NCBI GenBank assembly: GCA_044892505.1
Contig: CM097883.1
Coordinates: 314,526,001 to 314,590,000, forward strand
Origin: Schmidtea nova
Lineage: Eukaryota
Direction of reading: 5' to 3'
DNA: 64,000 nucleotides
Numbering within the stretch: position 1 is the first letter of the stretch; the number at the start of each line of letters is the position of its first letter. This document shows positions 4,701-53,347 of the stretch, piece by piece. The notes below the pieces were generated by a model. The model searched no databases and was not told the origin of the DNA. It saw only the letters and a program-made list of their open reading frames with translations. A program made the position numbers and the translations under genes.

Positions 4701-5810
4701 AATTTGTGTTAAAAAAATTTGTGTTAAAAAAATTTGTGTTAAAAAAATTTGTGTTAAAAAAATTTGTGTTAAAAAAATTTGTGTTAAAAAAATTTGTGTT
4801 AAAAAAATTTGTGTTAAAAAAATTTGTGTTAAAAAAATTTGTGTTAAAAAAATTTGTGTTAAAAAAATTTGTGTTAAAAAAATTTGTGTTAAAAAAATTT
4901 GTGTTAAAAAAATTTGTGTTAAAAAAATTTGTGTTAAAAAAATTTGTGTTAAAAAAATTTGTGTTAAAAAAATTTGTGTTAAAAAAATTTGTGTTAAAAA
5001 AATTTGTGTTAAAAAAATTTGTGTTAAAAAAATTTGTGTTAAAAAAATTTGTGTTAAAAAAATTTGTGTTAAAAAAATTTGTGTTAAAAAAATTTGTGTT
5101 AAAAAAATTTATGTTAAAAAAATTTATGTTAAAAAAATTTATGTTAAAAAAATTTATGTTAAAAAAATTTGTGTTAAAAAAATTTGTGTTAAAAAAATTT
5201 GTGTTAAAAAAATTTGTTTTAAAAAAATTTGTGTTAAAAAAATTTGTGTTAAAAAAATTTGTGTTAAAAAAATTTGTGTTAAAAAAATTTGTGTTAAAAA
5301 AATTTGTGTTAAAAAAATTTGTGTTAAAAAAATTTGTGTTAAAAAAATTTGTGTTAAAAAAATTTGTGTTAAAAAAATTTGTGTTAAAAAAATTTGTGTT
5401 AAAAAAATTTGTGTTAAAAAAATTTGTGTTAAAAAAATTTGTGTTAAAAAAATTTGTGTTAAAAAAATTTGTGTTAAAAAAATTTGTGTTAAAAAAATTT
5501 GTGTTAAAAAAATTTGTGTTAAAAAAATTTGTGTTAAAAAAATTTGTGTTAAAAAAATTTGTGTTAAAAAAATTTGTGTTAAAAAAATTTGTGTTAAAAA
5601 AATTTGTGTTAAAAAAATTTGTGTTAAAAAAATTTGTGTTAAAAAAATTTATGTTAAAAAAATTTATGTTAAAAAAATTTGTGTTAAAAAAATTTGTGTT
5701 AAAAAAATTTGTGTTAAAAAAATTTGTGTTAAAAAAATTTGTGTTAAAAAAATTTGTGTTAAAAAAATTTGTGTTAAAAAAATTTGTGTTAAAAAAATTT
5801 GTGTTAAAAA
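4701..5810. repeat. 15-bp tandem array (AATTTGTGTTAAAAA) x ~74 in the Polinton terminal region
   Basis: Directly visible, with G>A variant blocks at ~5111-5160 and ~5651-5670. Confidence 0.98.
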
Positions 5811-5831
5811 AAAATATTTTGAAAAAAAATT

Positions 5832-10538: not shown

Positions 10539-11059
10539 TTAATTCGTGATATTTCGGCACGAAACGATTTTTTCTTCACTGCAAGCAGACATAACAGTAA
10601 CCATGACTGTGTCACCGTTCTCGAATCGAGTTTTCAAATCCGCTTCCAATTCACCACCTGGTAGTTGGACATCTTCTTTAACTTCGCCTTTTTCTGCCAT
10701 CAAACTTACATAGCCATCAGTTGATATATCAACGAGTTGGTATTCAATTCTCTTCACAATTGGCATGTCTCTGTTAGCTGTTGATGGTGAGACATCTTCA
10801 CACTTTCTATCAGTAAATATATCAACAGCTGTTACATGGACTTTAGCTGAACCATGTTTACCTGTCTTGCAAGTACTCATATCTATGATTTTACAGGGTC
10901 GATCTTTTATCATTATGTATTGGCCTTTACGAAAAGCGCTCATTTGATTGGGAACCGTAAGAGAAGCTCCCGAATCGACATTTTCAAAAGTATCTTCGAA
11001 TTCTGACTAACGAAAAAATAATTTATATAAAAATTGACAACAAAGATAAACATTACCAT
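10539..11059 (-). CDS. eIF5A: Eukaryotic translation initiation factor 5A (156 aa; join 11059-11057, 11006-10539)
   Basis: Hypusine loop STCKTGKHGSAKVH, plus RPCKIIDMST and EYQLVDI. The ATG is followed by a 50-bp GT..AG intron (11056-11007), giving M-SEFEDTFENVDSGASLTVP in frame. Confidence 0.93.
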
Positions 11060-12642: not shown

Positions 12643-15422
12643 TCTCTTGGTTGGATGGATTGTTTGATTGTTGATTGTTTTCTCTTTAATTTTTTTGCCT
12701 GGGATGCTGTCAAGGTGATTAGGTTGACGATCATAAGGATACTGAGAGTGTTGCTTATGATGATGGCAATGATCCATCCTTCTTGATTGGGTAATTTGAT
12801 TTTTATAACTCTTTTTATAGTCTCTTTGTTCTCCTTCGGTAATCTTCGGATTTCTTCGAATTTCTTGGATTTGTAGAATTTGGGTTTGATCGTCTTCATC
12901 GGGGTTGATCTTTGTTGAGTTTTTGTGATTAATGCGGTAGCATTCGTTCTATTTGTGATTACTGATAAGGTTTTTCTATTGTTTGGGTTGTATTTGGTGT
13001 TGTTACCATTAATATTATATTCAGAATTGTTGCGGTAACGAGTCGATTTTCCATGATTCTGTTTAATACATTTACATTGATACACTGTCCGTTCATTCTC
13101 CAGTACGATTTTATTTACATTAGCGATTTCTCATTATTTTATACAAACGTCACTACATTCAGTCTTTCTCTTTGCATTCTTTATGTTGAATAACAATTTC
13201 ACATTCTTGTTTTATTCCCTCAAGGTGGTTAATTATTGTTTTAATTTTCTAGTTTTGTTCTTTGACACATTTCTGTCTATTCTGATCCAATTTCTTGGCT
13301 GAAGCTACTTGTTGGTTCTTTCTTCTCTTCGTTTTCCTTTCCCATTTTTACGCAATGTTCGCCTGGTTTTTGTAGGTTTCGCTAATTTTCTGGTGTCTTG
13401 CTGCACTTTATTCTGTCATTCTTTATATTTTAAAGTTCTATAATGTATTTATCCCTGGTGGTAATAATATGGTTATTCATTTGATTTACATTATCTGATA
13501 TATATAATCATATTCTGACATCTATACCATGACTGTTCTTTTCCCTTCGTATTGTCTTGCGTCTCTTAATTCATTCCATTTCTTTTCGTATCAAATGTCG
13601 TTTTGGCTTCATTTTAAATTAGCTCGATTGTTCCGACCATTTCAAATATTTTAGTCCGATTATCATATTGGCTTTTCACTTTACACGTACCGTGTCTAAT
13701 GAGGTTTAATCTACCTTCGTATTCCGTTGTGGGCATCTTTGAATTTCTTAGTTTAATATAGTCGAGTTTCATGTTTTCTTTTTTGGATCTCTTTTATGGG
13801 TTGATTTACCCATTTCTGTTCTGACTTTCTTAGTGAAGAGGCTTCATTTTTCGTGTTCTGGGTTTTACAGTGGACGAGCTTCATGATTTTTTGATTTTTT
13901 GATTTTGTTTTCTTTTTGAAATACATGTACACTGAGTTTACATACATCTGTTTTATTACTGACATATACATTTCATTAGCTTTTTCCACAAATATTAATA
14001 CCATATTGATACATATACATTGAATTGATTTTGCTATTTACAATTTATCCACTTTGTTTCTTTTTACACTTCACTCTATACCGCCTCATCGTTTAGGGTG
14101 AGAGCTTTTATGGGTTCCACATTGTTTGCAATCTCGACGTATTCTGATGTCGACTTTTGATAGTTTCGATTTTATTTCTCTTTTAATCTATTTATTTCTT
14201 GTATTGCTGACATTAGTTGGTTTTGATATCTGGTTTTGATATCTGGTTATTATTTCTTTTTGTATAATGATTTATTGTTAATAAGTGAGAGCTAATCGCA
14301 TCATATTAGTCAATTGTGTCTCTTTGCTTTTAGCTTCTTTCATGAAGATTTTTTGTATTCTCCTGAAATTGTTTACTTGCTTTTCCAGCTTGTTGATTGT
14401 GTCATTTTTCCTTTCGTTCACGTTCCTCAACTGGTTTTGGTTTCCTTGATTCGCGTGTTCCTTGTTGTTTTGATCTATTATCGCCTGATTCCTTGCTTCG
14501 GTACACTGGGATGCCAAATGTCCTCCTTGTCTGCATTGGTAACATATTCCTAAATGCTGACGAGTCTCTTTGATTCGTTCTCTCTTGGGATCGTTTTGAA
14601 CAATTCGATTTTCGTAATGCCTTTCTACAAGTTTGTTATTATTATTTATGAATTCAGATTGCTTCGTTTCTCTGGTTGTCTTTAGTTTCATTTCGTTCGC
14701 GATGTTGTCTTTCTGATTTTGGTTTTCCTGTTTATTTTTGAGATTCCAACAATTTCTTATCATGTGTCCTTTTTTCCCACAGTTTTAACATCTTTGACTT
14801 CTCAAAACCTTCTCTCCATGTCCTTTTGTTCCACATTGGGTGTAATTTTATTCTTGAAACAACTGCTTTCTAAGTGTCAATGTCTTTGGCAATTTTTACA
14901 CTATTCGTCTCTTATGTAGATATACTATTCTTTTGTCTCTTGTTGGTTTTTCTTTTCTTTCTTTTAAGTTTGATTTCTTTCTTCTACGTTTCCTGTTTGT
15001 TCATTTATCTTCTCGACTTCTGGAATTTCGTTTTTTTCTGACTGCTTGCTGTCTTTATTTTTCGTAACAAGTTGATTTATCGTTATATTTTCAATTTTTT
15101 CAATTATTTTGCTTTCAATTATTGCTTTTCTGTTTAGTTCTTTTAGTTACTCGTTTCTATTTTTCTAAGCATATTGATACTTGGATTATTCTTTTCTTAT
15201 TTTTCCCATACTTCTTCTAACTTTTGTGCCCTATTACTTCCATTTGCCATTTCCAATTTATCTGCCTTTAGAAGTTCTTCATTTATCTTTCTCCAAAGTT
15301 CCTCGTTGACACAGGTCTGCAATCCTACCAATTTGCTCCATCTGAACTTTTCTTCACGAACTTCCTTGATTGTTGGCTTTTGTGGTTCTGATTGACAGCT
15401 TGTCATCATATTGATTCTCCAT
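12643..15422 (+). repeat. 2,780-bp direct repeat, copy A (copy B at 21903-24682)
   Basis: Identical ORF translations at a constant 9,260-bp offset. At least one SNP (C12767 vs T22027). Confidence 0.95.
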
Positions 15423-16457: not shown

Positions 16458-19400
16458 TTAGTTGTTGTTAATTCGAATGAATTGCTCCTCGTTTTCGAAA
16501 ATGGGCAGTGTACCATTCTTGTGGAAGTACCATCGTTTTGCCGAGTGTGCAATATTACTAATTGCACACTTTTTTAATAACCCAGCCACCTGGCCTTTAT
16601 TTATGCCAATTTTCTGAAGGATCTGAGGAGTTTCTACAGGAAAAGAGCCAAGAGCGCCTATAATGCAAGTATCGAGTTCAACTTTAAAGTCTGGCTTGAC
16701 AGTTTGAATATCGATTTTCAGAGAGTTGTATTTTTCCAAATTCAATAAATTTACACGCTCAAAGTTACATAAAGAATCACTCGGACATTTAAGGTCAACA
16801 AGGAAGATTCTTTTTCTAAGAACATCAGTTATCAGCAAATCCACCCGCTCTTTAGAACTCGGAACAAGTGAACAGGCATGGTTGACAACAACAATTAGGT
16901 TTTTATTAAGTTGGAGATGATTAGAAATGAGTTTAAGGCAAGCATCGTGTCGTTCAGAGCCCAAAGTCATATGAACTTTGCACGATTGAAGTACATGTGA
17001 TGAGGTTTCATCCTCATCATGACATCGACGACAGAGTCTTTTCTCTCCACTATTATAAGGCTTTGCAAGGGTGGAAAGAGTGTTGGTGCGTGCTCTATGG
17101 ACAAAGTTCCAAGCAAACTCGGATAAATCACTGCGATAGATAGCTTTGTTTACTGTCGGTGAAAGCTTTACAGCTGAAGCGATAATGTTTGAGACACAGC
17201 TTTTTTCCCATTTAACCAAGTATGAATCATTGAGCGCTAAGTGCAACACTTTTGCCGTGGTCTCACGTTCGTCCGGAGTTACAATACATGTACCACGTGC
17301 GTTCGTATTAATATAGAGACATAGTACATTATTGGTGATAGTAAACGTGATGTTGATGTCGTGCGTCTTCTCAAAAAAAGCAATCGCAATCCTAGCTCTT
17401 TGAAATCGAGTTTTCTTTCCAGAATGGGGAGAAAGAGACTCTTTTCCATTGAGCCATTCAAGACTTTCCTGAAGAGTTGGATTTTTTATCCCAAGACGTG
17501 GACTGGTGACAAAAGCTAAAGAGTCAAGATTAATTTTCCTTGCAAAGTCACACTGTGACGTGATTAATCGAAAAAAGTGTGTGATAGTCTGTGTGTGATA
17601 TTCGTCGAGGAGATCAACACAGTTTGCTCCCCCATTTTCAGTTGAATTGTAGAAATAACTCACTTCCGAGTGATTAGGCAAAAGCAGCATTTTTCTTAAG
17701 GTTTTCCTTAACTGGCTAGTGATGTTAACTGAAAGATTTTTATTATCATAAGATTTTGAAAGTGCACTAGTTTTAATTTCACGGGTTCTAAAAGGGAAGA
17801 TCAAGCGAGAATGGATAAATACTTTGTAAGCTTTAAGTTTTTGCCACCCAAGCAAATCCGAATCAGCAAGTTTTTTGGTGTCTTTGAGTGCCTCCAGTAG
17901 AATGTCGTAAGGACTTTGGTCAGTTCCTTCGCCAACTGGCACACCTAGGTATTGATAAAATTCATTAGACAGTAGTTTTTTTATTTTAACTCCATTGATT
18001 GAAATTTCACTGTCAATGTGAATTCTAGGAAGTTGCAGATAAGCACATTTCTCTGGCCGATATTCAAAGCCTATATTGGTTGCAGTTGTGACAGCAGTGT
18101 TAATGAGTTTTTGCAGGTCATTAGGAGATTTAGCGAAAATTGCGATGTCATCTGCATACGCGAGAATTTTGACAGATGATTCTCCAATAGCAAAAGCATC
18201 ACAGACTGTTCTGGAAACAGCTTCCAACACAGGATTAATCGCCAAAGCAAACAAAATCATGGAGATGGGACATCCTTGCTTGACACCCTTTTTAATTGGG
18301 ATTTTTGGTGTCAGAATAGGACCACAACTATAGAAGGAGCTTGTGTCAGAATATAAAAGTTCTAAGATGGAGGTAAAGTCTTCACTTACCCCAGTGTATC
18401 GGAGTAAGGACCACATGTAATCATGTGGGACACTACCAAAAGCATCTTTTATGTCGAGCCAAGCAATGGAAAGAGGACAGTTTTTACTATATTTGGAATG
18501 TTCCAGAGCAGCAGACAGAATCGAGTTGTGTTCAACGCAACCTTCATGTTGGGAGCCACCTTTTTGTCCAACATGTAATAGTTTATTAGAGTTTATCCAG
18601 CGAGCAAGACAAGAGGCTAGACAGGACGCAAAAACTTTGTAGATGACGGATAGCAAGGCAATCGGGCGCCAGGATGATATATCTGAATATTTATCATTTT
18701 TATTAGGTTTCGGGATTAGAGTGGTTTTGTAGACCTTCCAACTGTCCGGTATGGACTTCTCTGTAATGATCTTGTTGAACAAGAAAGTAAGTATATGACC
18801 ATCAGGATCTAGACGCAACAAGTCACGATATTGTAATCCATCAATACCGGGACTAGTGTTGTCAGCCCTCCTAAGTTCATACATCACTTCCCTATTCGAG
18901 AAGCATTTCAGAGGAAGTACATTTTGAGAGTGTTTACAAAAGTCAAATAGTTTCTCCCAATGCCCACGTGCAGGTGTTTCATGAGAAAAGTTTTTAACTA
19001 TGTTCTGAAAAGTTGGTCGAGCCGGTACATCGAAATTGTTGATGACCTTATTGACAGCTGACTTCATATCTTTCATGAATAAATCGATCAATTTATTTTT
19101 GCTAATTTTAGAAGTTTTAATTTTGGTTCCCAAGTATGGTTTTTTAGCTGGTTTCATTTTTTCAGGGAATTGCTCCATAATCGCGTGAATAATTTCATTT
19201 GTGCTATAATTTGCCCATTTAATTAAAAATAGTTCAGCATTAGTTCTCTTTTGTTTTATCGGAACTCTCAATATAGCTTTATGAATAATTTTAGTGTTAC
19301 TTGGGTTCTCTATATTATCGTGCTGCCTGACAAAGATAAGCAAAGAGCCAACCACGTCTCCAATCTCGCGCAAGTTTAAATTTACAAGGGGCAAATTTTT

Positions 19401-20231
19401 CGAGAAATTATTAATAAACGCACACAAGAGAATTTTACTAACAAGACCTGAGCTGCGGATGTCATGGGGACATTCAGAAAGATTCAAAACGCGGCCAGGT
19501 GTATCTTTTATGTCATTTATTTTATTTCTCAGAATTCTGCAAGTAGACAGATAATTGTCATTCACAGTTAAAGATGTTGGGTTTACAAGATAAAAGGTGT
19601 CAACACTATAATCGAGAATGAGCAAAATTTCACGATGTTTAGGGGGAGCAACAATCGCAAAGATGATTTGTGATTTGCATATATTTTCAAAATTCAGAAA
19701 ATCATTTATGTGTTGAGTACAATCGTCAAGAATAGCCGTGCACATGGTCGCACTCAATAAAAAAAAAGTCTTGGGTAAATTTAAATTATCAAAAAATATT
19801 GAAATTATTTTATCCGAAATTTTAGAATTAAGTAAGTTTAGATTCTGAGAGATTTCATTTGTTTCCCTTAATTTTATTGAGTTTAATGATTTGTGTATAT
19901 TTAAAAAATGAATAACTTTATTAAACAAAAGTTTCTCAAGAAGCTCAATAAAAACCGACGCAAAGAGAATTGTATCATCAGAGATGTTGGGCACCAGTTC
20001 CAAGCCGTGGTTAGGTTTAAAAGAAATGTTTGTTGATAGAAAGAACTTATTCAAGTAGTCAGTAATATTTTCGCCGATGCCAAGTAAACGGTCAGAAATA
20101 GGTTTTTCTTGATTGTTAAAAACGTAACTTGCACCATGTGTAATAGAAAAAAAGATATAAACACCAGTAATTATCATTTGGGATAACACTGATGACATGG
20201 TTAATCCCGAGAAAATTTTTAAACGTGACAT
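16458..20231 (-). CDS. RT-RLE portion of the non-LTR ORF
   Basis: 1257-aa ORF with RT (YADD), zinc knuckle and RLE. Confidence 0.9.
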   Translation of the reverse strand: MSRLKIFSGLTMSSVLSQMIITGVYIFFSITHGASYVFNNQEKPISDRLLGIGENITDYLNKFFLSTNISFKPNHGLELVPNISDDTILFASVFIELLEKLLFNKVIHFLNIHKSLNSIKLRETNEISQNLNLLNSKISDKIISIFFDNLNLPKTFFLLSATMCTAILDDCTQHINDFLNFENICKSQIIFAIVAPPKHREILLILDYSVDTFYLVNPTSLTVNDNYLSTCRILRNKINDIKDTPGRVLNLSECPHDIRSSGLVSKILLCAFINNFSKNLPLVNLNLREIGDVVGSLLIFVRQHDNIENPSNTKIIHKAILRVPIKQKRTNAELFLIKWANYSTNEIIHAIMEQFPEKMKPAKKPYLGTKIKTSKISKNKLIDLFMKDMKSAVNKVINNFDVPARPTFQNIVKNFSHETPARGHWEKLFDFCKHSQNVLPLKCFSNREVMYELRRADNTSPGIDGLQYRDLLRLDPDGHILTFLFNKIITEKSIPDSWKVYKTTLIPKPNKNDKYSDISSWRPIALLSVIYKVFASCLASCLARWINSNKLLHVGQKGGSQHEGCVEHNSILSAALEHSKYSKNCPLSIAWLDIKDAFGSVPHDYMWSLLRYTGVSEDFTSILELLYSDTSSFYSCGPILTPKIPIKKGVKQGCPISMILFALAINPVLEAVSRTVCDAFAIGESSVKILAYADDIAIFAKSPNDLQKLINTAVTTATNIGFEYRPEKCAYLQLPRIHIDSEISINGVKIKKLLSNEFYQYLGVPVGEGTDQSPYDILLEALKDTKKLADSDLLGWQKLKAYKVFIHSRLIFPFRTREIKTSALSKSYDNKNLSVNITSQLRKTLRKMLLLPNHSEVSYFYNSTENGGANCVDLLDEYHTQTITHFFRLITSQCDFARKINLDSLAFVTSPRLGIKNPTLQESLEWLNGKESLSPHSGKKTRFQRARIAIAFFEKTHDINITFTITNNVLCLYINTNARGTCIVTPDERETTAKVLHLALNDSYLVKWEKSCVSNIIASAVKLSPTVNKAIYRSDLSEFAWNFVHRARTNTLSTLAKPYNSGEKRLCRRCHDEDETSSHVLQSCKVHMTLGSERHDACLKLISNHLQLNKNLIVVVNHACSLVPSSKERVDLLITDVLRKRIFLVDLKCPSDSLCNFERVNLLNLEKYNSLKIDIQTVKPDFKVELDTCIIGALGSFPVETPQILQKIGINKGQVAGLLKKCAISNIAHSAKRWYFHKNGTLPIFENEEQFIRINNN

Positions 20232-21852
20232 TTTCTCTAATAAATGAGTTATTTCTAGAGATTATATTTAGTGTAAGTTCTTGGGACAGGACCAAGATGT
20301 CTTTATGGTCTTTAAACCATTCGGTAATCAAAGACGAGATGCAGGCATTACGTTTCATAAGGAAGATGTGGTCGTGTTTATTAGAAATATTTAGAGTTGT
20401 GTCTTTTTTCACTCTCTTAGGGTTAGTGAGTTTAGATTCACCACCTCCAGATGATTTTGGGACCATGTTATTTAAAGTAAGTTTAAATTGGTAGACATCT
20501 TTTCTGATATTTTCTATAAAATCACCAGGAAATTTTTGCCATGTACCACTTATCATCATAGCATAAGCACAGATGTAAGGCCCACAGTCATAGTTATTAT
20601 TTTGGTAGACAAAGTTTTTATGTGGGTGGAAAAATAGTGCAGCTTTAAGGTTAAAAAGACGATTCAAAGCGATTGTAGTTTGAAGAGCGTCGGCTCTATT
20701 GGTCAACGAATGGCGGTTGTTGAAAAGAGGATCTACAAAGTATGAAGTTAAAGAAGTTTTACAATACACAAAAATAATCCAATGAGTTTTATTAATATTT
20801 ATTGGACATAGTAGAGTTTGCGCAGATATTACTCTGTCTGGCATTCGAAAAATGGTTTCGCAAAGATTTGCCCGTAAGATTTCTATTTGAAAGCATTTTA
20901 TTGGAGCAAATTTAGGGTCATTGATATGACATTCAAGATAGTTATCAATGTCATCATCAGTAAACCATATTTTAGGGTCACGCAATATATTTGTGATTTT
21001 AGATGGTTTAAATTTTTTGGGAAATGTGCTGTCTGCATCAGTCTCTGTTGAGATTGGGGCAGATATTGAGACTGGTGCAGGCACACAACTTCATTTGTTT
21101 TTGGTAGCCATACGTTTGGGTTTTTTAATAGGCTTTTTCGAAGAGTCTTGAGACTCACTATCAATTAATTCAGTGTTTGATGTCAAATTTTCATCAATAT
21201 CGACAGGAAGTTTATTTGTAGGGTTTTCTACCAAATTGTAATTTATTTCAGCTTCATCGCATTCAGGAATAGAAAAAAGAGGCTCGTTTACAAGCTTTTC
21301 AGTATTCTCATTGTTCCCCATCACAGGCTTATCAACCTTTTCTATAGCAGGTTTTTCATTGACAGTTAGCTTAATAGAGCATAAGATTCTAGATATACCT
21401 TCGCTCATTTCTGGAGTACAAATCTTTCTACAGTACTTGGGAACGCGGAAGGTAAATTTATTTTTTAAAAGAAAAGTTTTTTTATCTCTAATAAGAAAGA
21501 ATAAGAGTCTTTTCGCTTTCAAGGTGTTTGAGTTATCCAAATCGTCTTGGAATTCGTTAATTCCACGTCCTATATTTTCAAGTGCCGTTAGTTGTTGTGC
21601 TTTATTTGGCAAAAGATTATCGATATAATCAAAGAAGTTGTTAATATCCAAAATAGTTTTTGGAGAGATGATGTTGTTTATTTTATCGATCTCTTGAAGT
21701 ATAAAAGTTTGTTTGAGTTTTAGGAAGCGCTCTTGGCAGCTTTTGTTATAATAGGAGTTGGTAGGTAGTTTTTTAATTAGTTCCATAGCCCAGGATTCAA
21801 TATTATCGCAGCATAAGGAGTCTACACTCTCAAGCTTCACAATCGAGTGCAT
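20116..21852 (-). pseudogene. N-terminal part of the non-LTR ORF with a Ulp1/C48-like cysteine protease
   Basis: ORFs 21852-21091 and 21084-20116 share a frame and are separated by one TGA. Motifs: WFTDDDIDNYL, PININKTHWIIF, YFVDPL, YQNNNYDCGPYIC. Confidence 0.85.
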
Positions 21853-21902: not shown

Positions 21903-24682
21903 TCTCTTGGTTGGATGGATTGTTTGATTGTTGATTGTTTTCTCTTTAATTTTTTTGCCTGGGATGCTGTCAAGGTGATTAGGTTGACGATCATAAGGAT
22001 ACTGAGAGTGTTGCTTATGATGATGGTAATGATCCATCCTTCTTGATTGGGTAATTTGATTTTTATAACTCTTTTTATAGTCTCTTTGTTCTCCTTCGGT
22101 AATCTTCGGATTTCTTCGAATTTCTTGGATTTGTAGAATTTGGGTTTGATCGTCTTCATCGGGGTTGATCTTTGTTGAGTTTTTGTGATTAATGCGGTAG
22201 CATTCGTTCTATTTGTGATTACTGATAAGGTTTTTCTATTGTTTGGGTTGTATTTGGTGTTGTTACCATTAATATTATATTCAGAATTGTTGCGGTAACG
22301 AGTCGATTTTCCATGATTCTGTTTAATACATTTACATTGATACACTGTCCGTTCATTCTCCAGTACGATTTTATTTACATTAGCGATTTCTCATTATTTT
22401 ATACAAACGTCACTACATTCAGTCTTTCTCTTTGCATTCTTTATGTTGAATAACAATTTCACATTCTTGTTTTATTCCCTCAAGGTGGTTAATTATTGTT
22501 TTAATTTTCTAGTTTTGTTCTTTGACACATTTCTGTCTATTCTGATCCAATTTCTTGGCTGAAGCTACTTGTTGGTTCTTTCTTCTCTTCGTTTTCCTTT
22601 CCCATTTTTACGCAATGTTCGCCTGGTTTTTGTAGGTTTCGCTAATTTTCTGGTGTCTTGCTGCACTTTATTCTGTCATTCTTTATATTTTAAAGTTCTA
22701 TAATGTATTTATCCCTGGTGGTAATAATATGGTTATTCATTTGATTTACATTATCTGATATATATAATCATATTCTGACATCTATACCATGACTGTTCTT
22801 TTCCCTTCGTATTGTCTTGCGTCTCTTAATTCATTCCATTTCTTTTCGTATCAAATGTCGTTTTGGCTTCATTTTAAATTAGCTCGATTGTTCCGACCAT
22901 TTCAAATATTTTAGTCCGATTATCATATTGGCTTTTCACTTTACACGTACCGTGTCTAATGAGGTTTAATCTACCTTCGTATTCCGTTGTGGGCATCTTT
23001 GAATTTCTTAGTTTAATATAGTCGAGTTTCATGTTTTCTTTTTTGGATCTCTTTTATGGGTTGATTTACCCATTTCTGTTCTGACTTTCTTAGTGAAGAG
23101 GCTTCATTTTTCGTGTTCTGGGTTTTACAGTGGACGAGCTTCATGATTTTTTGATTTTTTGATTTTGTTTTCTTTTTGAAATACATGTACACTGAGTTTA
23201 CATACATCTGTTTTATTACTGACATATACATTTCATTAGCTTTTTCCACAAATATTAATACCATATTGATACATATACATTGAATTGATTTTGCTATTTA
23301 CAATTTATCCACTTTGTTTCTTTTTACACTTCACTCTATACCGCCTCATCGTTTAGGGTGAGAGCTTTTATGGGTTCCACATTGTTTGCAATCTCGACGT
23401 ATTCTGATGTCGACTTTTGATAGTTTCGATTTTATTTCTCTTTTAATCTATTTATTTCTTGTATTGCTGACATTAGTTGGTTTTGATATCTGGTTTTGAT
23501 ATCTGGTTATTATTTCTTTTTGTATAATGATTTATTGTTAATAAGTGAGAGCTAATCGCATCATATTAGTCAATTGTGTCTCTTTGCTTTTAGCTTCTTT
23601 CATGAAGATTTTTTGTATTCTCCTGAAATTGTTTACTTGCTTTTCCAGCTTGTTGATTGTGTCATTTTTCCTTTCGTTCACGTTCCTCAACTGGTTTTGG
23701 TTTCCTTGATTCGCGTGTTCCTTGTTGTTTTGATCTATTATCGCCTGATTCCTTGCTTCGGTACACTGGGATGCCAAATGTCCTCCTTGTCTGCATTGGT
23801 AACATATTCCTAAATGCTGACGAGTCTCTTTGATTCGTTCTCTCTTGGGATCGTTTTGAACAATTCGATTTTCGTAATGCCTTTCTACAAGTTTGTTATT
23901 ATTATTTATGAATTCAGATTGCTTCGTTTCTCTGGTTGTCTTTAGTTTCATTTCGTTCGCGATGTTGTCTTTCTGATTTTGGTTTTCCTGTTTATTTTTG
24001 AGATTCCAACAATTTCTTATCATGTGTCCTTTTTTCCCACAGTTTTAACATCTTTGACTTCTCAAAACCTTCTCTCCATGTCCTTTTGTTCCACATTGGG
24101 TGTAATTTTATTCTTGAAACAACTGCTTTCTAAGTGTCAATGTCTTTGGCAATTTTTACACTATTCGTCTCTTATGTAGATATACTATTCTTTTGTCTCT
24201 TGTTGGTTTTTCTTTTCTTTCTTTTAAGTTTGATTTCTTTCTTCTACGTTTCCTGTTTGTTCATTTATCTTCTCGACTTCTGGAATTTCGTTTTTTTCTG
24301 ACTGCTTGCTGTCTTTATTTTTCGTAACAAGTTGATTTATCGTTATATTTTCAATTTTTTCAATTATTTTGCTTTCAATTATTGCTTTTCTGTTTAGTTC
24401 TTTTAGTTACTCGTTTCTATTTTTCTAAGCATATTGATACTTGGATTATTCTTTTCTTATTTTTCCCATACTTCTTCTAACTTTTGTGCCCTATTACTTC
24501 CATTTGCCATTTCCAATTTATCTGCCTTTAGAAGTTCTTCATTTATCTTTCTCCAAAGTTCCTCGTTGACACAGGTCTGCAATCCTACCAATTTGCTCCA
24601 TCTGAACTTTTCTTCACGAACTTCCTTGATTGTTGGCTTTTGTGGTTCTGATTGACAGCTTGTCATCATATTGATTCTCCAT
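21903..24682 (+). repeat. 2,780-bp direct repeat, copy B
   Basis: See copy A. Confidence 0.95.
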
Positions 24683-28320: not shown

Positions 28321-29464
28321 ATTATATTCTGTGTGCCTTTATTGTCTAAACGTTTAAAAATTAAAATGAACAAAAGCGCATCAAGTATACACGTTAAAAC
28401 ACAAACATAACATAAAAACATTATTTACAAAATAAATTACAGATTAGAAGAAATTTACATATTTTCGTAAAGAATATTTCGATTTTTACCTTAAAAACTA
28501 ATAAAATACCAAAGAAAATTTATTTAAATAAAAATTTAACTAATTTAGTAAAAACCTTTAATTTAAAGTAAGTATTTTGGATTAAAATAAATTTATTTAA
28601 ATTTTCATAAAAATTTTACACAAAATACTATTTTAATTTTCCTTTAAATCCTAAAATTTAATTTTGTTCTTTATAGAACAATTTGTTTAAACGCGCTAAT
28701 AAAAATGACAAGAGAAAATAAGTATATATACCACCATCCCAAATCGAAAAAACAGAATTTGGGGTTACTAAAATTTTGATATTTTTACTACTACCAGAAT
28801 TTGCGTTTTTTACCAGAAACCTTACATTCTACAAACTCGGTGAAACGAACTTACGACTACCGAAATTTGCTATTCAAGTCTTTTACTTACGAGAATTTAC
28901 TAAGAGATTTGCACAGAGCCGATGAAAAATTTACGAATAACTTGCAGAGATCCAGAGAACTTTCCAGGACCCGTACATTAATAGTCAAAACTTCCGTTAT
29001 TCACCAAGTTCACTGCTACGGAATTCCACAAAAGCCGACTGATTCGCTATAACCAATTAACAATTAAGGAAACGTAAGAGATGTTTTCTAGTTTGGTATA
29101 GGATTTTGAGGATCATGTCCCCGATCGTCCCATATCATTTGTTTTTTTATAATCGCATTATTTTATTGACAATATATTTAATCCAAATTTGCTGATGTAT
29201 AATTGTAATTTCTTTCACATTTCGTTAAAATTATAATTTCATTCAAAAATGATTTTTGTTTTTAATCCTTTTTTGATAATTGTCATTTTACAGAATAATG
29301 AGAGGGAAATTTCGTCACATTGACCTAATGATTAAATCATAAAAGCGTTTTCATCAGTTTTCATTAGGGCTGCGGAAATTATCGATCAATTAATCGGTTA
29401 ATCTATCAAAAATAAATTAATCGATTAATCTTAAAAATGTTACATATTTAATGTTACATATAAC

Positions 29465-30415
29465 TTTTATCCAGTGTACCAGGTATAGTATATAACAAAA
29501 TCTTTCGACTTTGTTTTATACTTACCTGGCGCGAAGAGAAATTTTCGCGTCTCCTGCATAGCACTGATGAGAGCCAAAAGCTCGAAACTAGTCTGCAATT
29601 GGAGATTTGCACTGGGTATCACAAAAAATCACAAGCTTTACTTGTTAAAAACAAATAAGTCATCCAACAAATGTTTTTTTCAAAAGATAATTCAAGTAAT
29701 TGAAATAATGAAGCTAAGGCAGTCGGGTGCGCTTGAAAACAGTTTCTGTTGAACACTTTTAGTGCGCAGAGGCGAAAATGAAATTCATACGCCATGTTTG
29801 CAAGTTACAGATTATCTGTAGGACCTTGCATATTCAAGTGATGTTTTATCCAGTGTACCAGGTATAGTATATAACAAAAATCTTTCGACTTTGTTTTATA
29901 CTTACCTGGCGCGGAGAGAAATTTTCGCGTCTCATGCATAGCAATGATGGGAGCCAAAAGCTCGAAACTAGTCTGCAATTGGAGATTTGCACTGGGTATC
30001 ACAAAAAATCACAAGCTTTACTTGTTAAAAACAAATAAGTCATCCAACAAATGTTTTTTTCAAAAGATAATTCAAGTAATTGAAATAATGAAGCTAAGGC
30101 AGTCGGGTGCGCTTGAAAACAGTTTCTGTTGAACACTTTTAGTGCGCAGAGGCGAAAATGAAATTCATACGCCATGTTTGCAAGTTACAGATTATCTGTA
30201 GGACCTTGCATATTCAAGTGTTGTTTTATCCAGTGTACCAGGTATAGTATATAACAAAAATCTTTCGACTTTTTTTTATACTTACCTGGTGCGGAGAGAA
30301 ATTTTCGCGTCTCATGCATAGCACTGATGAGACTCAAAAGCTCGAAACTAGTCTACTATTGGGGATTTGCACTGGGTATCACAAAAAATCACAAGCTTTA
30401 CTTGTTAATATTTAT
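29465..30415 (+). repeat. ~380-bp tandem repeat, ~2.5 copies (retrozyme-like)
   Basis: Near-identical units with a 379-380 bp period, each containing a hammerhead core. Confidence 0.92.
29555..29600 (+). ncRNA. Type I hammerhead ribozyme with intact core (degenerate copies at ~29935-29980 and ~30315-30360)
   Basis: ATAGCA-CTGATGA-GAGC-caaaa-GCTC-GAAA-C-TA-GTC-TGC: canonical CUGAUGA/GAAA/GUC core, 4-bp stem II and minimal stem III with palindromic ACTAGT. Predicted cleavage after C29593. Confidence 0.85.
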
Positions 30416-30525
30416 ATGTAAAGATTACTTAGCACTAGACTACCACTTAACGAAACAATGTACAAATACCGTCTTTAATCCAATAGGTTAAATATGGTTC
30501 TTAATATGTTATTCATTATTCAAGG

Positions 30526-30765
30526 TTACAAGAAAATCATATTTTGATTATACGAGATCTTATAAAACATAATATTATAAGAATTCGGAACCTTCGACAT
30601 AAATGTATCCGTAGTAGGGTCGTTGAAGTTCTTGTCAGAACAAATAATTCTATTGTAAACTAAGCAACACAGCTCATCCTTCGCGGTCTTAGTGAAATAC
30701 TCTGGATAGCTTTCAACGAACTTTGTGATTCTCTGTATTTGATTTGATTTCTTAATGTATGTCAT
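30526..30765 (-). pseudogene. Fragment resembling the N-terminal zinc-binding region of a DNA transposase
   Basis: FVESYPEYFTKTAKDELCCLVYNRII resembles degenerate C2H2/BED-like transposase N-termini. Weak. Confidence 0.3.
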
Positions 30766-32631
30766 TATGGGTATAAATTAAAAATATTTGTAAATTTGGG
30801 CAAATGAACAGCAATTTAATTCCATTTTGATTTTTATTTCATTGCAGTTCAATTACCGCAATTAACAAATATATCATAAATAAAAATTTTTAAAAATTAA
30901 GAAAATTGACTTTTTTTGACCGGTCGATAAATTTAATTGACAATTTTGACAATGGCTGCCCTAGTAATAATATTTATTTATATACAACATTAATTATTGT
31001 TTATTCGTATAGTTTTCACCCAATACACAATATGACGAGCAATGGGAGTAATGATCAAGTTAAGCATCTAACAGGGAAGTTAAACAAGCATTTTGTCTTT
31101 AAGCTAACTACTCATGACAAAGTAGGGGATTGCGAAATAGTTTACTGCATTCATTGAGACAAACAATTTGCATTCCGCGGTTCAAAAGATTCTCTCACGT
31201 ATCATCTTAAACACAGACATCTGTTGAAATTTCAAGAACGTGCTGAAATTGATCGCAAGAAACAATCTCAAACTCAAGCAATTACGAACTTCATGTCATG
31301 CCAATCAAATAAGCCCGTAAACGCCAAAATTTCAGATGAATTAAAAAATATCATTGTGTATTGGATTGCAAGTTCAGGACGACCGACTGAAATAGTGGAG
31401 GATTTTGGACTTTAGAGGATAATGTGCACTCGGAAAACCAGACTTACACGATGCCAAGTCGCCGTGATTGAGAGAATTTACGAAGAGAAGCTAAACGAGC
31501 ACAGAAATGCTATTGAAAGGGGTTGAATGTATTGCACTTGTCATTTATTTTTGGACATCAACCAACAATGAATCGTACTGTAGTATAACCGGACATTGGA
31601 TTGATTCGGAATGGGCGCTGAAATCAGTTACCCTGGGTTGTATGCTTGTTGATGAACGCCATACTGTCGAAGATGTTGCCAGTTTCTATAGTGAATTCGC
31701 AAAAAATTGGAAAATATCCAAAAATATTTTGTATGGTACCAGATAGCGCTCATAACATAGTTTCTGCCATCAGAAAAACAAGATGTAATCACATACCATG
31801 TATAGCTCACTGCCTTCGAAATAGCATACTGGCTGGGTTGAAGTCGGCCGATTCACAGCCAAATATGGCAAAATGTCGACTATTAGTGGGTCATATTTAA
31901 CACAGTCCAGCGAATACTTCTGAATTAAAGAGTAGTTATTCAAATGTCAGATAATTGAATGTCAATGAAGTATTCCTCAAACTGCAGCAGGATGTTTCAA
32001 CTAGTTGTAACAGTACATATATGATGTTTGTCAGATTAATTGAAGTTAAAAATTCCATAAATCAGTATCACATTGATTTATGGTCTACAGTGGTCTACAG
32101 TGGTCCTAAATAGTTTGAGTTAGATTGGGACAAAATTTCAAAATTTACAAAATTATTGACCACCATATTGGATGCTACGGAATATATTGGTGGTGAAAAG
32201 TATGATACATGATCAGCTGTTATTCCTCTAAATCTTTTTTTTGCGTAAGATGTTGAGTAGTAATGATGAAGATCCTAGTTATACCTCTCGTTTTAAATAT
32301 ATTATATAACACGATTTCATGACTCGAATTGCAAGTATCTCCAAGCATTTCCAATTTTTCAAATGGCAGTAGTATTAGATCCGTAATATAAGATACTAAC
32401 TTGTTTAAGTCGACAATAGCGTGAAACCGTATAGATAATATTGTCCAATGAATTTGAACATTTTATGAAAAGAGGCAGTCTTCAGAACTTACTACAGACT
32501 CCCCAAAAGATAATAATGAGGCGTCAACCGAACCCACTTCAATAAAGGCCAAACTTACTCTATTGAAAAGTGATTCTGAATCAATTGGATCATCCAATGA
32601 ATTATATGCAATACATGGAGCCCATACAGAA

Positions 32632-35600
32632 TATCATAATATTGTCAATGATAATTAACAATAATCGTGTTAATTATTGTTTTAATATTTTGTTTAAATA
32701 ACTTATCATTTTATAATAAATATAATTTGAATATTAAGAATTCTTATGCGTGCATTATAACAATGGCGTCACGATTGGAAGAATTGAATCTAGATGACAA
32801 CATCAATGTCGAAATATGGTTAACCGCTTTTGGTGCGATGAGTCGAGCCAATAAGTGGGTCGACAGTGACAAATCAAGACAAATCATGGACAACTTCCTA
32901 TCTGTATGTGGACTGAAGGCACTCACGAAAATCCAACATATGGCTTCTCCCAAATTGCTAGAGGAGATGACGTTCAGCGAGATCAAAGTCATGCTATTGA
33001 ACCACACACAGCCGAAAAGCAAAGTTGTAATAGCTGAGAGAGCAAGATTTTATCAGCTAAGACAGGAACCGAAAGAGAAATTAGCAGATTTCTATATCAG
33101 ACTCAAGAAAGCTGCTATATATTGTGACTTCAAGAAATTGAAGGAATCAACTGACCCCAACGAGGATATGCTCCTCATGGCATTGATATCGGGAATATAT
33201 GACATCAATGCTAAGGAAAAGATTTTGCTGCAAATGAGTGCTGGGATTCCAACATGCAACGAGATCCTCGCACAAATGCAAACATATGAGGAGATATCGA
33301 CGTTCATATCCCTCCAGCATGGAACAAAACTTACAATTACCTCTACGACCGATGAAATCAATTTCACTAAAAAGAAGAGATCAAACCTTGGAACATCAAG
33401 GAAATTCGAAGAGAAAGGAAATCAAAGGTGTCATTACTGTGATCGAATACACGAGCCAAAGAAATGCCCGGCATATGGAAAGAAGTGTACGAATTGCGAC
33501 AGAATGAATCATTTTGCGAAAGCCTGCAGATCTTTGACAAAGTCGATACACGGAACATTCGCAGATCAGACATCGTCAGCCGATAAAAGTGATACGCAGT
33601 ACATCAACCAGTTCACTTCAAATAATAATACAAGTGACATTAACCCTGTCCTCTTAGGTACAACGATAGTGAAAATGCAAAAAGATACCGGCGCATCTGT
33701 ATCAATCATATCATCCAAGATGTGGGAAGACATGGGAAGACCGAAGCTTGACAAGACAAGAAGAAAGCTTGAAGCCTACGATGGGCATATCATGCAATGC
33801 CACGGCTCGTTTCTGACAACTGTGGAATGGGAAAAGCAAGTGCTTCCGGTAACAATCACAGTCATTCAATCTATGAAGGACTTCGGACTAATAGGAATGG
33901 ATATACTGCAGCAGACACGACACGGAATCTTACAGTGTCAAATCACGAAGACAACAGAATCTCAAGTGTTACCAGCAATCAAAGGTATAAAAGCTTCTAT
34001 GGATTTAATCGACGATGCGAAGCCTATGTTCTGTAAGGCTAGGCCAATACCATTAGCTTTAGAAAACAAGGTCAACGATGAACTAATAAGGTTACAGCGA
34101 TTAGGAGTAATCTCTCCGTGCACCAAACCCGTACTGAATTCTTCGCCCGTGGTTTGGGTAAAAAAGAGCAATGGCGACCTCAGATTATGCGTTGACTTCA
34201 AAGTGCATATCAATAAAAAGATAAAGACCGATGCATACCCCATTCCGAACGTCGAAACAATTTTCTCAAAACTAAAGAATGCCAACAAATTTGCAAAGCT
34301 CGATCTCACATCGGCATATTGGCAGATAGAATTAGACGATAAAGCAAAGGAGATATCGTGCATAAATACGACAAAAGGTATGTTTATTGTAAATAGATTA
34401 CAGATGGGTATGAAGAACGCTGCTGCAATCTTTCAAAGGACAATGGAGCAAATACTTAAAGATATCAAAGGAATACTAATCTACCAAGACGACTTACTGA
34501 TTTATGCCGAGAATGAAGAATCACTAAGGAATAGACTGCAAACGGTAAAATCGCGCCTAAAAGAGAAAAAAGTTACAATCAACCAAGCAAAGACTATTGA
34601 ACTTACCAGTAGTGTTTCCTTCTTGGGTTTCGAAATATCGTCAAAGGGTATCACACCTGATAAAAGTCTCGTCAGCAAAATAAACAATATAAAAGAACCA
34701 ACATGCAAGGAGGAAGTAGAATCTTTCATCGGGTTAATTAATTACTTTGGTAGGTTAATTCCAAATTTTTCAGACAAAACAAGAGTAATCAACGAATTGA
34801 GAAAAAAAGGTGTAAAGTTCGATTGGAACAAGGAATGCTCGAACCAGTTCAAAGCACTAAAACAAGAAATTTCAACGTATCCAGTTGTGCAACCTTACAG
34901 CCTCGAAAAGGAAGCCACATTGACGACTGATGCATCTAAACACGCCATAGCAGCTGTCCTAACCCAAGATGGCCATCCTGTGATCTACATTTCCAGAACA
35001 CTTTCGGCTGCCGAAAAAATTACTCTAACATAGAGAGAGAGGCTTTAGCCATAGTATGGTCTATATCTAGACTACAACACTTCTTATTAGGGAGGAAATT
35101 CAAGGTGAATACAGACCACCAACCACTCCAATCCCTATTCGGTAGCGAATCACCGATTCCAAGGCGAACATCCAATCGAATTTCAAGGTGGGCCATGCTG
35201 TTGATGCAGTACGATTATGAAATATACTATGTTATGGGAAAGCAGATCCCGCATGCAGATGCACTATCAAGACTAAAATTCATCGATGAAAAGGAAGCAA
35301 ACGAGGAAATCAAAACCAAGAACACATTGAGTGTTTTCACGGTCCAGTTTAGCGAGGGCTTATTAAATGCCTCAGAGGTCAGATTGGAAACATCGCTAAA
35401 CGAGTTGGCCAGAGATATCATGCGTCGCATCAAGAAAGGCAATTGGTCGAAGTGCTCACAATCAGAAATGCCATTCAAGAAAATATCAGACCGACTAACA
35501 ATTGAAGATGGACTGATTTACCACGGGTCACGTCTATTCATTCCACCAAAACTAAGGAAGAAATGCATTGACATAGCACACAATGAGACACATTCTGGTC

Positions 35601-36632
35601 TACAATCAACATTTTACCGGCTAAAGGCATCATCTTGGTGGCCTGGAATCCACGGAGACATCGACAACTTCATTAGGTCATGTGCAATTTGCAAGAAACT
35701 ACATCCTCGCCCAGAGAAGAGCATTCACAAATGGCCAGAAGCGAAACCATTCCAAAGAGTACATATGGATTGGGCCCACATCAAAGAGGTGGGCGACGTG
35801 CTCATTATTGTAGACGCTGGTTCGGGATGGATTGAAGCCTTCAAGACATCCGATAAAACGAGTAAGTCAGTGATCACGTGCTTACGAACTGTTTTCACCA
35901 GGTTTGAAGTCCCGGAATGCATCGTCTCGGATAATGCCCAGGAATTCACTTCACATGAGCTAAACGCGTGGATCAACAGCCAAGGAGCAATGAAACTAGA
36001 ATCGCCGGCATACTTCCCTAGATCAAACGGATCAGCAGAAAGGGCTGTACAAACTGTCAAGAAAGCTCTCAAAGGATGGAACGAGCTTCGGACACATTGT
36101 GATTTCAATACCTTCCTACAGAAAATTTTATTCCACCACAGAATTTCATCGACATCGAGGGGGAAATCACCCGCAGAGATTGTTTTCGGGCGACAGCCTA
36201 GAGCTCCAATAATGTCTACATTTCAACAAGGCCAGGACATCTGGTACAAAGCCAGTGAGGATGTGGAACCAAAAGAGGGCGAATTTATCATGACTAAGGG
36301 CAACAACACTTCATACATCACCATCGAGAGTCAGAACGACAATGTGACGTTGGTTAGAAATAACCAAATCTCAGACCACCGGCAGATTCAGGAAGTCAAA
36401 GACGCACAACTTACGCAAGAAAAAGTACCAGCCGAATCCGACATTAGACGCAGTGGGAGACATCGATCGAAACATAGATGTGGGTGCTGCTGATGAAAGG
36501 ATATCATAATATTGTCAATGATAATTAACAATAATCGTGTTAATTATCGTTTTAATATTTTGTTTAAATAACTTATCATTTTATAATAAATATAATTTGA
36601 ATATTAAGAATTCTTATGCGTGCATTATAACA
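32632..36632 (+). mobile_element. Full-length Gypsy LTR retrotransposon (4,001 bp), young insertion with CAGAA TSD
   Basis: 131-bp LTRs at 32632-32762 and 36502-36632 with one mismatch seen. TSD CAGAA at 32627-32631 and 36633-36637. PBS TGGCGTCACG at 32764. Purine tract GATGAAAGGA before the 3' LTR. Confidence 0.93.
32763..36493 (+). pseudogene. Gypsy gag-pol (gag, CCHC, PR, RT, RH, IN) with one frameshift
   Basis: CPAYGKKCTNCDRMNHFAKAC, QKDTGAS, LIYQDD, TTDASKH, HNETHSG...CAIC, SDNAQEF and AERAVQTVK. A missing A in GAAAAAATTAC (~35013-35023) breaks AEKNYSNIERE. Confidence 0.9.
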
Positions 36633-49942: not shown

Positions 49943-51014
49943 AGTATTTCTAAAGAAGATGGTTGTTTGTTAACTATGGATTCTATGGTATAACGGGCCT
50001 ATTTATATTAGTCAACCCACCCGTTATACTTAATTTTCAACACTCATGTGTAACCACTCAGCTTTAACAGTTTTTATTTATCGATAATACTATTTAATCA
50101 CATTCAATCTCATCAGTCGTTTTCAATTACTTCCTCATCTAACCAGCAATGATCATACCATGTCGGGTAATTCTCGTAAGTACCTGTGATCCGTACACGC
50201 TGGGGTTCATCATTTTATCAGTTCTCAATGCCTGTGATTTATTTATCATCTCTCTTGGCGATTAAACGCGTCTGACAGAGGTTATCGATTACCCTTAACC
50301 CTTGATACTAGGTTCACTATGCCCGAACTCGTAAGCGCTAATGTTGACATATACCTACCCTCGTCGTCACCTAATTCATCGGCACTAATATTATTCACTA
50401 CACGTCTATCCCTCGTCTAGACTTCACCGCGATATATGTCCTTCCTATAAAACGGGTTTCACTTTGCGCTCGTTTACGACTACTAGTTTATACTCGATAC
50501 CCTATCATCGTGATGTATAACGTTTACATTAGATCATCTCTACCTTGATTTCGTTCATGATCATTAGGTCTTACTCGATACCCTATGTGCATTTAACCCC
50601 TTCCGCTTTCCAAATATTTAATACACCTATGGTCCCGCCGCATCAGCACCTCACAACCGAAAGATTGTGTTGCGCTGAGAGGCCCCAAGAATCCGTCAGG
50701 CTGTTAGGCCTCCGGAAAACCTTATGGATTTTAATATGGTTATAAACAATTATGAGGGTTTAAATACATCAATAACATAACTCCAAATTACCTTTTATTT
50801 TCGCTTCGAAATCGGTATTACAACGTTTTCAGTAAGTCACAAGAGCTTACACTTGGTAAAAAATGACATATTCAAATACTGATTTTACTTCAGTATTTAT
50901 ACTGAACCGGTGTTGTTGGTTAGCCAATCAGCATCGAGTATGTGTGTTTGATCATTATTCTGTGTTGCCGGCTTTTTGCTGCCTAACTTAACTCGCCGAT
51001 TTGTTTGGTTAATC

Positions 51015-51320
51015 ATGCGGTAAGTTTATTTTTTGTACGATTTAATTTTTATTTGATTTTGCTTTAGGTCTTCGGTGACATCCGCCCACGCGCTGTCATA
51101 TTCCAATTTTTTCTGCTTCGCATGAGTGAGTTTTGAAGATTTTTGTTGTTTTGATTAATATGTTATTTCTTTTAGATGTTGCCGCCTATTTTGTTACGCT
51201 TTGGTGTTGGTAATTTATTTTGTTGTTATTCTGTATTTAATTTATTTTATTGATTGTACATTATTTTCAGATGCTGCTCGATTTGGCTGGCCCAACATCA
51301 CTCGGGGTCCCCTAAAATTG
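51015..51320 (+). ncRNA. Candidate spliced antisense transcript (three GT-AG introns of 48, 50 and 61 bp)
   Basis: Introns at 51020-51067, 51126-51175 and 51210-51270 with GTAAGT/GTGAGT/GTAATT donors and T-rich ..TAG/CAG acceptors. Only very short ORFs. Confidence 0.5.
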
Positions 51321-51499
51321 CGTCCCGCAATTACATGCATATACCTACCTCAACATACATAAAAAGTTCGTGACAGAATTCACATTCAAAACCACATAAG
51401 GTGGTAGCTTTCATACGCATTTATACAAAGTCACACATTGTCATTGTCGTGTTTTTATTGTCACACAGTTCAATGTTTCTGGCTCATAGGGGTTGATTT

Positions 51500-52024
51500 T
51501 CAGGTCCTTTCACTGGTTGACTGCATTTCGTATCGGGCTTGGATTTGTCGTAGATGACTTCTCATCCTTTGTTGGGTTTTTGCTTCTCTTTTGGCGCATC
51601 TACACATTATCGTTTGTTGTTGTTTGAGGCTTCTGATTCGGTATAGGGTATACGTAATCACGATGATCAGGATGATTGTCAGTATTGTCATTGTGACTAT
51701 TCCCACGATGATCCATCTGTTTCGGATTTCGGATTCGATTTGGGTTTGACCTTTGATTGGCTTTAGGTGATCTTGAAAGGTTTTATGGATTTCTCGGATC
51801 TTCTCGATTTGATCGAATAAGGTTTGTAAGGGTTTGCGATGATCATGACTGATTCGCATTTGTCGGATTAATTGTTTCAAGTCTTCTCTGACTTCGTTTA
51901 ATTGTTTTTCGATCTCCTGGGATATCTCATTTGACGGGGTTCTTTGGATTTCGGTTGTCGTACAGTTCGTGATTGCTGCTGTTAACATAATAGTTAGGAT
52001 TGGTAGGGTTTTGAGCCAGTTCAT
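51500..52024 (-). CDS. Accessory type I membrane protein (signal peptide, coiled coil, TM, basic tail)
   Basis: MNWLKTLPILTIMLTAAITNC signal, heptad ectodomain, TM WIIVGIVTMTILTIILIIVITYTLY. Confidence 0.75.
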   Translation of the reverse strand: MNWLKTLPILTIMLTAAITNCTTTEIQRTPSNEISQEIEKQLNEVREDLKQLIRQMRISHDHRKPLQTLFDQIEKIREIHKTFQDHLKPIKGQTQIESEIRNRWIIVGIVTMTILTIILIIVITYTLYRIRSLKQQQTIMCRCAKREAKTQQRMRSHLRQIQARYEMQSTSERT

Positions 52025-52097
52025 TTCTGATTATTCCACTGATTAATACATGTTACATCGATTTGTACATTTTTATACACGGATTTTTCGCCTCTTT

Positions 52098-53258: not shown

Positions 53259-53347
53259 TCTGTAATTTACAAATTTACACTTGTTATACTATATGTTTAT
53301 TGTTGTCGTCGATTTTTACACTTTATTTACAGGGTCGTTCACTCTGA

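Follow-up and report, generated by a model that had tools for sequence, protein, structure and literature searches.

A family of tandem hammerhead repeats with the insertion footprint of Penelope-like elements, and a candidate circular RNA behind it

The locus described here raises the question of how a short tandem repeat carrying hammerhead motifs came to be inserted into genomic DNA, and whether its RNA took part as a self-cleaved, circular molecule. It lies in the window, by which is meant the whole stretch of 64,000 nucleotides that was analysed. A preliminary description had claimed a tandem 380-bp array, and this was borne out by TRF, which reported a single array on the + strand at 29465-30408 (period 380, 2.5 copies or, more precisely, 2.48 units, 97 % matches). 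The repeat almost certainly represents a retrozyme family. On balance, it may be understood as a putatively self-cleaving, likely circularising repeat of 380 nt, likely copied by the reverse transcriptase (RT) and endonuclease of a Penelope-like element (PLE) into cut, AT-rich DNA. The array contains no stop-free frame of more than 87 aa, its units have a GC content of 37 %, and the insertion arms are bare tandem repeats in which no LTR structure was seen. The features of the locus are as follows.

29465..30408, + strand: retrozyme array, 2.48 units of 380 bp; the 5' end is arbitrary, the 3' end is family site A
29465..29843, + strand: copy 1, 379 bp
29844..30223, + strand: copy 2, 380 bp
30224..30408, + strand: copy 3, partial, stops at site A
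29479..29529, + strand: long hairpin 5' of the hammerhead, recurs in each copy, fold z -6.3
29530..29549, + strand: CGCG-closed hairpin, kept in organism A along with the hammerhead
29550..29605, + strand: hammerhead 1, core 29564-29570 intact, cut predicted 3' of C29593, stem I with an A.A mismatch
29930..29985, + strand: hammerhead 2, core AUGAUGG (two changed bases), predicted to be catalytically dead, cut site C29973 retained
30310..30365, + strand: hammerhead 3, core intact, stem II broken, C.A mismatch in stem I, site C30353
29644..29649, + strand: 3'-end site A of the family, copy 1 (positions ~181-186 of the unit), putative RT start 1
30404-30408, + strand: equivalent of site A, closing the array
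29681..29685, + strand: 3'-end site B of the family, copy 1 (positions ~218-222 of the unit), putative RT start 2, ~37 nt past A, corresponding to the PLE "tail"
30405..30408, + strand: target TTAA of the host element, whole on the right side, as shown by empty sites in L162-L175
29465-29466, + strand: TT, a 2-nt duplication or microhomology
29365..32270, + strand: host element, a decayed BED-finger DNA transposon, presumably hAT-like, right end unmapped, separate from the retrozyme

The hammerhead of copy 1 combines the core CUGAUGA with a 4-bp stem II and its loop CAAAA, GAAA, the palindrome ACUAGU and a GUC cleavage site, while stem I consists of 6 bp with an internal loop plus a distal helix. 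Of the structure proposed in the preliminary description, the type I architecture and the palindrome were recovered but the two-pair stem III was not: in the monomer it would be better drawn as one A-U pair with a palindromic tetraloop, because two pairs would leave a loop of 2 nt. As a dimer, ACUAGU self-pairs over 6 bp (-6.2 kcal/mol). Copy 1 had been called intact, which holds for its core but not for the hammerhead as a whole, given the A.A mismatch in stem I that it has in common with copy 2. The change of CUGAUGA to AUGAUGG in copy 2 is read in the sequence as claimed, the weak stem II of copy 3 corresponds to a C.C mismatch and is accompanied by the mismatch in stem I, and both of the long hairpins were found again, the one at 29479-29529 being equalled by 0 of 200 shuffles. 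The stem I that had been postulated as ancestral, AUAGCA/UGCUAU, equals the majority sequence of the family, in which all core bases and helices are present.

Taken by itself, the locus gives a faint signal. Rfam returned a weak match to Hammerhead_HH9 at 29546-29615 (20.4 bits vs a gathering score of 52, E 0.21), the alignment of which nevertheless places every core base, and the 66-nt hammerhead segments alone fold no better than their shuffles (z -1.1 to +0.7). The case for the hammerhead therefore rests on the family data. Rfam miRNA matches near 30781-30875, far under gathering, were rejected as AT-rich hairpin noise. As only copy 1 gives a near-intact catalytic half, the locus probably yields little monomer; two consecutive complete hammerheads, by which Li et al. 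(10.64898/2026.07.22.740005) recognise an active copy, are lacking here and present in many arrays of the family.

A genome-wide copy search, which had been proposed at the outset, returned 3,677 occurrences of the exact 36-nt core, and 0 of the reversed control, across all three large contigs of genome G000 (1.25 Gb in 283 contigs, an animal by gene content). The family unit measures 380-382 bp and occurs from single partial copies to arrays of at least 59 units. Numerous arrays hardly deviate from the majority sequence, which indicates that the family is young. Folded as a circle, the monomer reaches -118 kcal/mol with 71 % of its bases paired at 37 % GC (z -8.4, equalled by 0 of 100 shuffles). 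Long arrays at G000:C1:29336000-29363000 (>60 units) and C1:478548600-478570900 (59 units) contain recurring unit variants, and this is DNA-level higher-order expansion of a retro-inserted seed.

In organism A (run X1), almost all of the depth, read here as conservation and not as expression, falls on the hammerhead module, where a single stem I pair has changed on both strands of the helix, U-A replacing C-G (depth 10,957/11,104 and 7,264/7,290 for the two sides). When cores with another stem III were sought, 44 were returned, mostly single-base decay products; 11 of the 44 carry ACGCGU, a second palindrome, and come from a sister family that is old and has a stem I of its own. ACGCGU self-pairs over 6 bp (-8.9 kcal/mol) and the single mutant fails to self-pair. 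Members of this sister family (L192:1481-1950; L183, L189, L194, L198, L199, L201, L202, L204) have stem III ACGCGU and loop II CAAAUA; in L192, two sister motifs lie ~385 bp apart, with a B-box-like stretch, not called a tRNA by ARAGORN, before the second. In a 16-row alignment (A1), the rows of which are drawn from two related families and include decayed copies, 78 % of the cells are paired and 14 carry double changes, a result reached by 0 of 500 shuffles, while two of five covariation measures do not surpass the shuffles. The palindrome kept by double change and the covariation support dimer-type cleavage. Judged from the compensatory stem I pair and the sister palindrome, the hammerhead is conserved and apparently under selection.

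An origin of the unit from a Pol III SINE or a tRNA was considered and found to be unsupported: ARAGORN called no tRNA in L001 or L090, a sense A box is absent from the unit, B boxes are present only with one mismatch, and each unit contains six T-runs of at least 4. Smalpha-like elements, which we take to be Pol III SINEs with a hammerhead, were the class tested for the unit.

Published systems, cited in this work for those portions of their text that were available, allow the family to be placed. The architecture of animal satellites and retrozymes, which had been assigned to the array from the start, stood: tandem type I hammerheads with a palindromic stem III match those in PMC4209133 and PMC7229834. 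Dimer-type cleavage is usual for metazoan type I motifs, and a weak palindromic helix III is common among metazoan hammerheads (PMC4209133). Animal non-LTR retrozymes (Cervera and de la Pena 2020, PMC7229834; Li, Clavereau and Pollet, 10.64898/2026.07.22.740005) have the following in common with the present family: tandem non-coding units of 150-450 bp, a canonical type I hammerhead, a GC content below 50 %, a highly self-paired monomer, occurrence from dispersed monomers to long arrays and PLEs in the same genome. The present family differs from them in that its sequence is new, that no similarity to PLE terminal repeats (pLTRs) was found and that the locus carries no long target site duplication (TSD); for animal non-LTR retrozymes, a TSD of >4 bp, when present, is the published criterion. 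The satellite hammerheads of newt and axolotl (HHR_Amex1 type; PMC7229834, PMC6155905) likewise have a single-pair helix III with a palindromic tetraloop, need dimers for efficient cleavage and are of similar unit size, whereas the host here is invertebrate-looking and the unit sequence is unrelated. With its canonical hammerhead, unit size and GC content, non-coding nature and self-paired RNA, the family is, as far as sequence can tell, a new animal non-LTR retrozyme.

That the array was inserted follows from its flanks, which belong to the decayed BED-finger transposon, ~16 long relatives of which were found. In most of these, the TTAA at which the array sits is intact and uninterrupted. The array was thus inserted without deletion of target sequence, accompanied by a duplication or microhomology of 0-2 nt. 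Most other copies of the family sit in microsatellites, where a TSD is unreadable. Downstream of the cut site, copies 1 and 2 have derived bases in common that copy 3 does not have; upstream of it, derived changes unite copies 2 and 3 to the exclusion of copy 1. Because copy 2 shares derived variants with both of the others, the simplest reading would be that an insertion of 1.5 units aged and that one 380-bp segment was later duplicated locally. The locus itself is an ordinary decaying passenger copy.

The mode of insertion was read from the ends of the family copies. Loci were sampled from the best DNA hits and the first exact-core hits in order along contig 1, with variant-core loci added later, and the end sample is selected for an intact core. 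Among the loci taken in order of position, two windows that together span 13 % of the unit receive 46 of the 59 3' ends, vs 7 of the 58 5' ends. Of 124 arms in total, 46 stop at A and 47 at B, a further 12 at A of an older subfamily (A*) and 18 elsewhere, and 1 is cut off. Site A is located ~50 nt and site B ~90 nt 3' of the cut site, each right after a U tract. The 3' flank is (AAT)n, (ATT)n or (TA)n in 59 of 94 cases, and no poly(A) tail was observed on the family copies examined.

Back-to-back pairs, of which there are 29 among the 124 arms, follow a rule. Both arms were classed in 18 pairs, 11 of the 29 being left out because an arm stopped at neither site or ran beyond the sequence retrieved; 17 are A+B, one is B+B and none is A+A (p 7e-5), with 3 of the 17 A+B pairs depending on class A*, which was defined after the data were seen. 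The arms of one pair agree in 42 of 45 subfamily-marker comparisons, vs 61 % across loci, which points to one template per event. The arms of the B+B pair are of different subfamilies and, since they disagree at two markers, this exception probably represents two events. Literature searches, by which few subscription papers were reachable, returned no report of the family or of tail-site pairing in retrozymes.

The pattern resembles that of PLEs, the hallmarks of which are a tail of 30-40 bp at a single end, a 5' copy in inverted orientation and a bias towards microsatellites (10.1101/2021.04.23.441226). In vitro, PAc of Anolis cleaves both strands at ATT, and its RT begins at two internal positions that are one tail length apart (PMC11167929). 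EN+ PLEs (PMC11167929; 10.1101/2021.04.23.441226) thus have in common with the present family two internal 3' ends, 30-40 nt apart and 3' of a hammerhead, ATT-rich targets, an inverted 5' arm and a tail at one end only. They differ in that the unit here is ORF-free, the whole element being one short repeat, and in that A and B follow U tracts, not an AC-rich loop. Intact PLE reading frames of 840-900 aa (RT+GIY-YIG) are present in G000, and an autonomous 856-aa RT+GIY-YIG family of this genome has 3' ends ~567 and ~601 nt after the stop, ~34 nt apart; 11 of its 12 inverted pairs, which were hand-picked with edge-cut and three-arm loci excluded, are mixed. A PLE is very likely the mobiliser of the family.

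Which PLE this would be was sought among five families (P0001; L068/L122; L070/L143; L073; L138), none of which has useful nucleotide similarity to the unit, and no partner was found among them; 150 of 3,406 candidates from a GIY-YIG family search and 150 of 28,173 from a protein search were scored, and these are dominated by two abundant families. In this the family is unlike non-autonomous Chlamys PLEs such as MRC1, the 3' end of which, in the available account, is like that of their autonomous partners; hammerheads are missing from most Chlamys elements (10.1101/2021.04.23.441226). The same source says of PLEs with a C-terminal endonuclease that they bear a hammerhead. In the P0001 family, a hammerhead is absent by a strict scan and by Rfam, and P0001 itself gave no PDB sequence match. 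An intact 856-aa RT+GIY-YIG element stands in tandem at L121 (G000:C1:338228000-338237999), with a period of 3,136 bp and an inverted arm; a hammerhead was not detected in its terminal repeat. The PLE family at L068:4510-7330 has a degenerate hammerhead-like core and two 3' ends of its own, and its very short back-to-back stubs are extremely common beside microsatellites, with short copies in many loci (e.g. L069, L074, L082, L107, L132). A fragment of 18S rRNA lies near a PLE insertion at L135:7281-7441.

The form of the RNA template was addressed through the 5' ends. Counting AT-flanked ends, a single 5' end falls at the cut site, vs 1 and 0 at two control positions; in a separate count of 94 5' ends, 1 falls within positions 128-132. 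A cleaved linear monomer as the main template was rejected, as no accumulation of AT-flanked ends is seen at the cut site; the template would therefore cross that site, as a ligated circle or an uncleaved multimer. At L032, each of the 5.3 units, the two terminal parts among them, carries a three-variant haplotype that is lacking from the 4 other loci with the same marker, and this, like the conserved ribozyme, speaks for a circle. The marker of L033 is not private, being common to 3 other loci that include homogeneous arrays of 59 and 13 units, so that identical units could have been copied from a linear multimer that stems from a homogeneous array. The 59-unit array has long pure runs, and its unit heterogeneity does not separate a circular from a linear template. 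On the whole, the template was probably circular rather than uncleaved and linear.

The best of the other explanations retains the family and its PLE mobiliser and takes an uncleaved multimeric linear transcript as the template, with cleavage serving RNA turnover or some other step. Such a template would be in keeping with the behaviour of PAc, which in vitro inserts from unprocessed, uncleaved RNA, hammerhead mutants inserting normally (PMC11167929), and with the 59- and 13-unit arrays that carry the L033 marker; the lack of 5' ends where the RNA would be cut is equally compatible with it. Only 1 of 9 Xenopus dimers was cleaved in vitro (10.64898/2026.07.22.740005). However, the hammerhead is the most conserved part of the unit across organisms and has undergone compensatory changes, which is hard to explain if cleavage were dispensable. 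Tandem arrays are, moreover, where dimer cleavage should be efficient, and the haplotypes of L032 and L212 are without a source array among the exact-marker hits. An uncleaved template is considered rather unlikely.

With a circular template, the life cycle may be pictured as follows. Tandem arrays would be transcribed, and the ACUAGU palindromes of adjacent hammerheads would pair to form a stem III of 6 bp, with cleavage 3' of GUC, as predicted from structure, covariation and the literature. A host ligase may then circularise the monomer, by analogy with the retrozymes of PMC7229834. A PLE protein would cut both strands of an AAT-, ATT- or TA-rich target, and RT would start inside the RNA at A or B, often with one site per DNA end; the pattern of the ends is observed, and the enzyme is the presumed one. 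RT would circle the template for a variable length, giving the partial to multi-unit arms that are found in the genome, the circle again being presumed. Later growth of arrays would take place by DNA-level duplication, as the shared variants show at the present locus. We tentatively put forward a more specific form, which we hold to have somewhat less than an even chance: a dimeric Penelope-type enzyme, sitting on one 380-nt circle, would cleave both strands of an AT-rich target, prime cDNA from each DNA end at the two fixed sites 37 nt apart and roll round the circle, producing back-to-back arrays in one event, with recognition by RNA structure and not by pLTR homology.

Three further explanations concern the nature of the unit or its mobiliser. 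In the first, the unit is the pLTR of an unsampled autonomous PLE and the arrays are truncated copies of that element. All insertion hallmarks are indeed of the PLE type, Xenopus retrozymes resemble pLTRs (10.64898/2026.07.22.740005), and the PLEs scored were but 150 from each of the two candidate sets. Yet no examined arm extends in register into PLE coding sequence, the arms continuing round the 380-nt unit instead; the unit has no frame of appreciable length, and the hammerheads seen in PLEs of G000 are of a different, minimal-looking type. This is very unlikely. Even less probable is a DNA satellite that spreads by recombination or by extrachromosomal DNA circles and in which the hammerhead is vestigial: the expansion of long arrays and the local duplication at the locus did take place in DNA, but against it stand the facts that the 3' ends are fixed and strand-specific, that the array entered an empty site cleanly and that the RNA structure is under selection. 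The least probable, and already disfavoured, is the mobilisation by a nearby LINE-type non-LTR element that the preliminary description had suggested: a 1,267-aa RT frame is present in the window (16458-20261) and the 5' ends of the family are variable, which would be so with any target-primed RT, but the two internal 3' ends, the outward-facing A+B arms and the missing poly(A) tail match PLEs including one in G000, as does the 0-2 nt duplication, and the unit has no similarity to the LINEs of the window.

Several other features of the window were recorded. The 1,267-aa RT frame is part of a 6.5-kb non-LTR element that also has a protease-like frame and is flanked on either side by a 2,780-bp direct repeat (12643-15422 and 21903-24682, 99.96 % identical), which could be an unusually large insertion duplication or an assembly feature. 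LTR-retrotransposon-like gag/pol frames occupy 32655-36493, between 135-bp direct repeats at 32628 and 36498. A 15-bp minisatellite of 74 copies with 99 % matches is present at 4701-5812, and an intronless eIF5A frame (Pfam PF01287, PF21485) lies on the - strand at 10539-11006. Short ORFs are clustered at 292-4487; among them, the ATPase-like frame 849-1481 looks to us like a packaging gene of the Polinton/adintovirus type, and another frame of the cluster is presumably TBP-like. The long, strongly strand-skewed stretch at ~50000-64000 contains retrotransposon-like frames and a 476-aa ORF (53348-54778, - strand), which we assume to be RING/TRAF-like.

In conclusion, PLEs have been named as a strong candidate for the copying of retrozymes (PMC7229834), the mechanism of which is described as still to be elucidated (10.64898/2026.07.22.740005). 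The retrozyme papers, in their available text, propose the PLE route from co-occurrence and pLTR similarity, and tail sites and A+B pairing are not reported in it. The clean footprint of the present family turns the proposed route through PLEs and circular RNA into a concrete experiment. A young, high-copy family in a genome with intact PLE ORFs gives exact predictions for an assay of the PAc type, namely two RT starts, one per DNA end, one template per event and copying over the cut site. If recognition is by structure, an old, ORF-free ribozyme circle could switch from one PLE helper to another. If the circle is the template, a natural circular RNA would be written into DNA as tandem arrays, which would constitute a route for the birth of satellites, and, if the dimeric-enzyme proposal is true, the back-to-back arrays would be direct genomic evidence that a circular RNA of an animal is retrotransposed by a rolling-circle mechanism.
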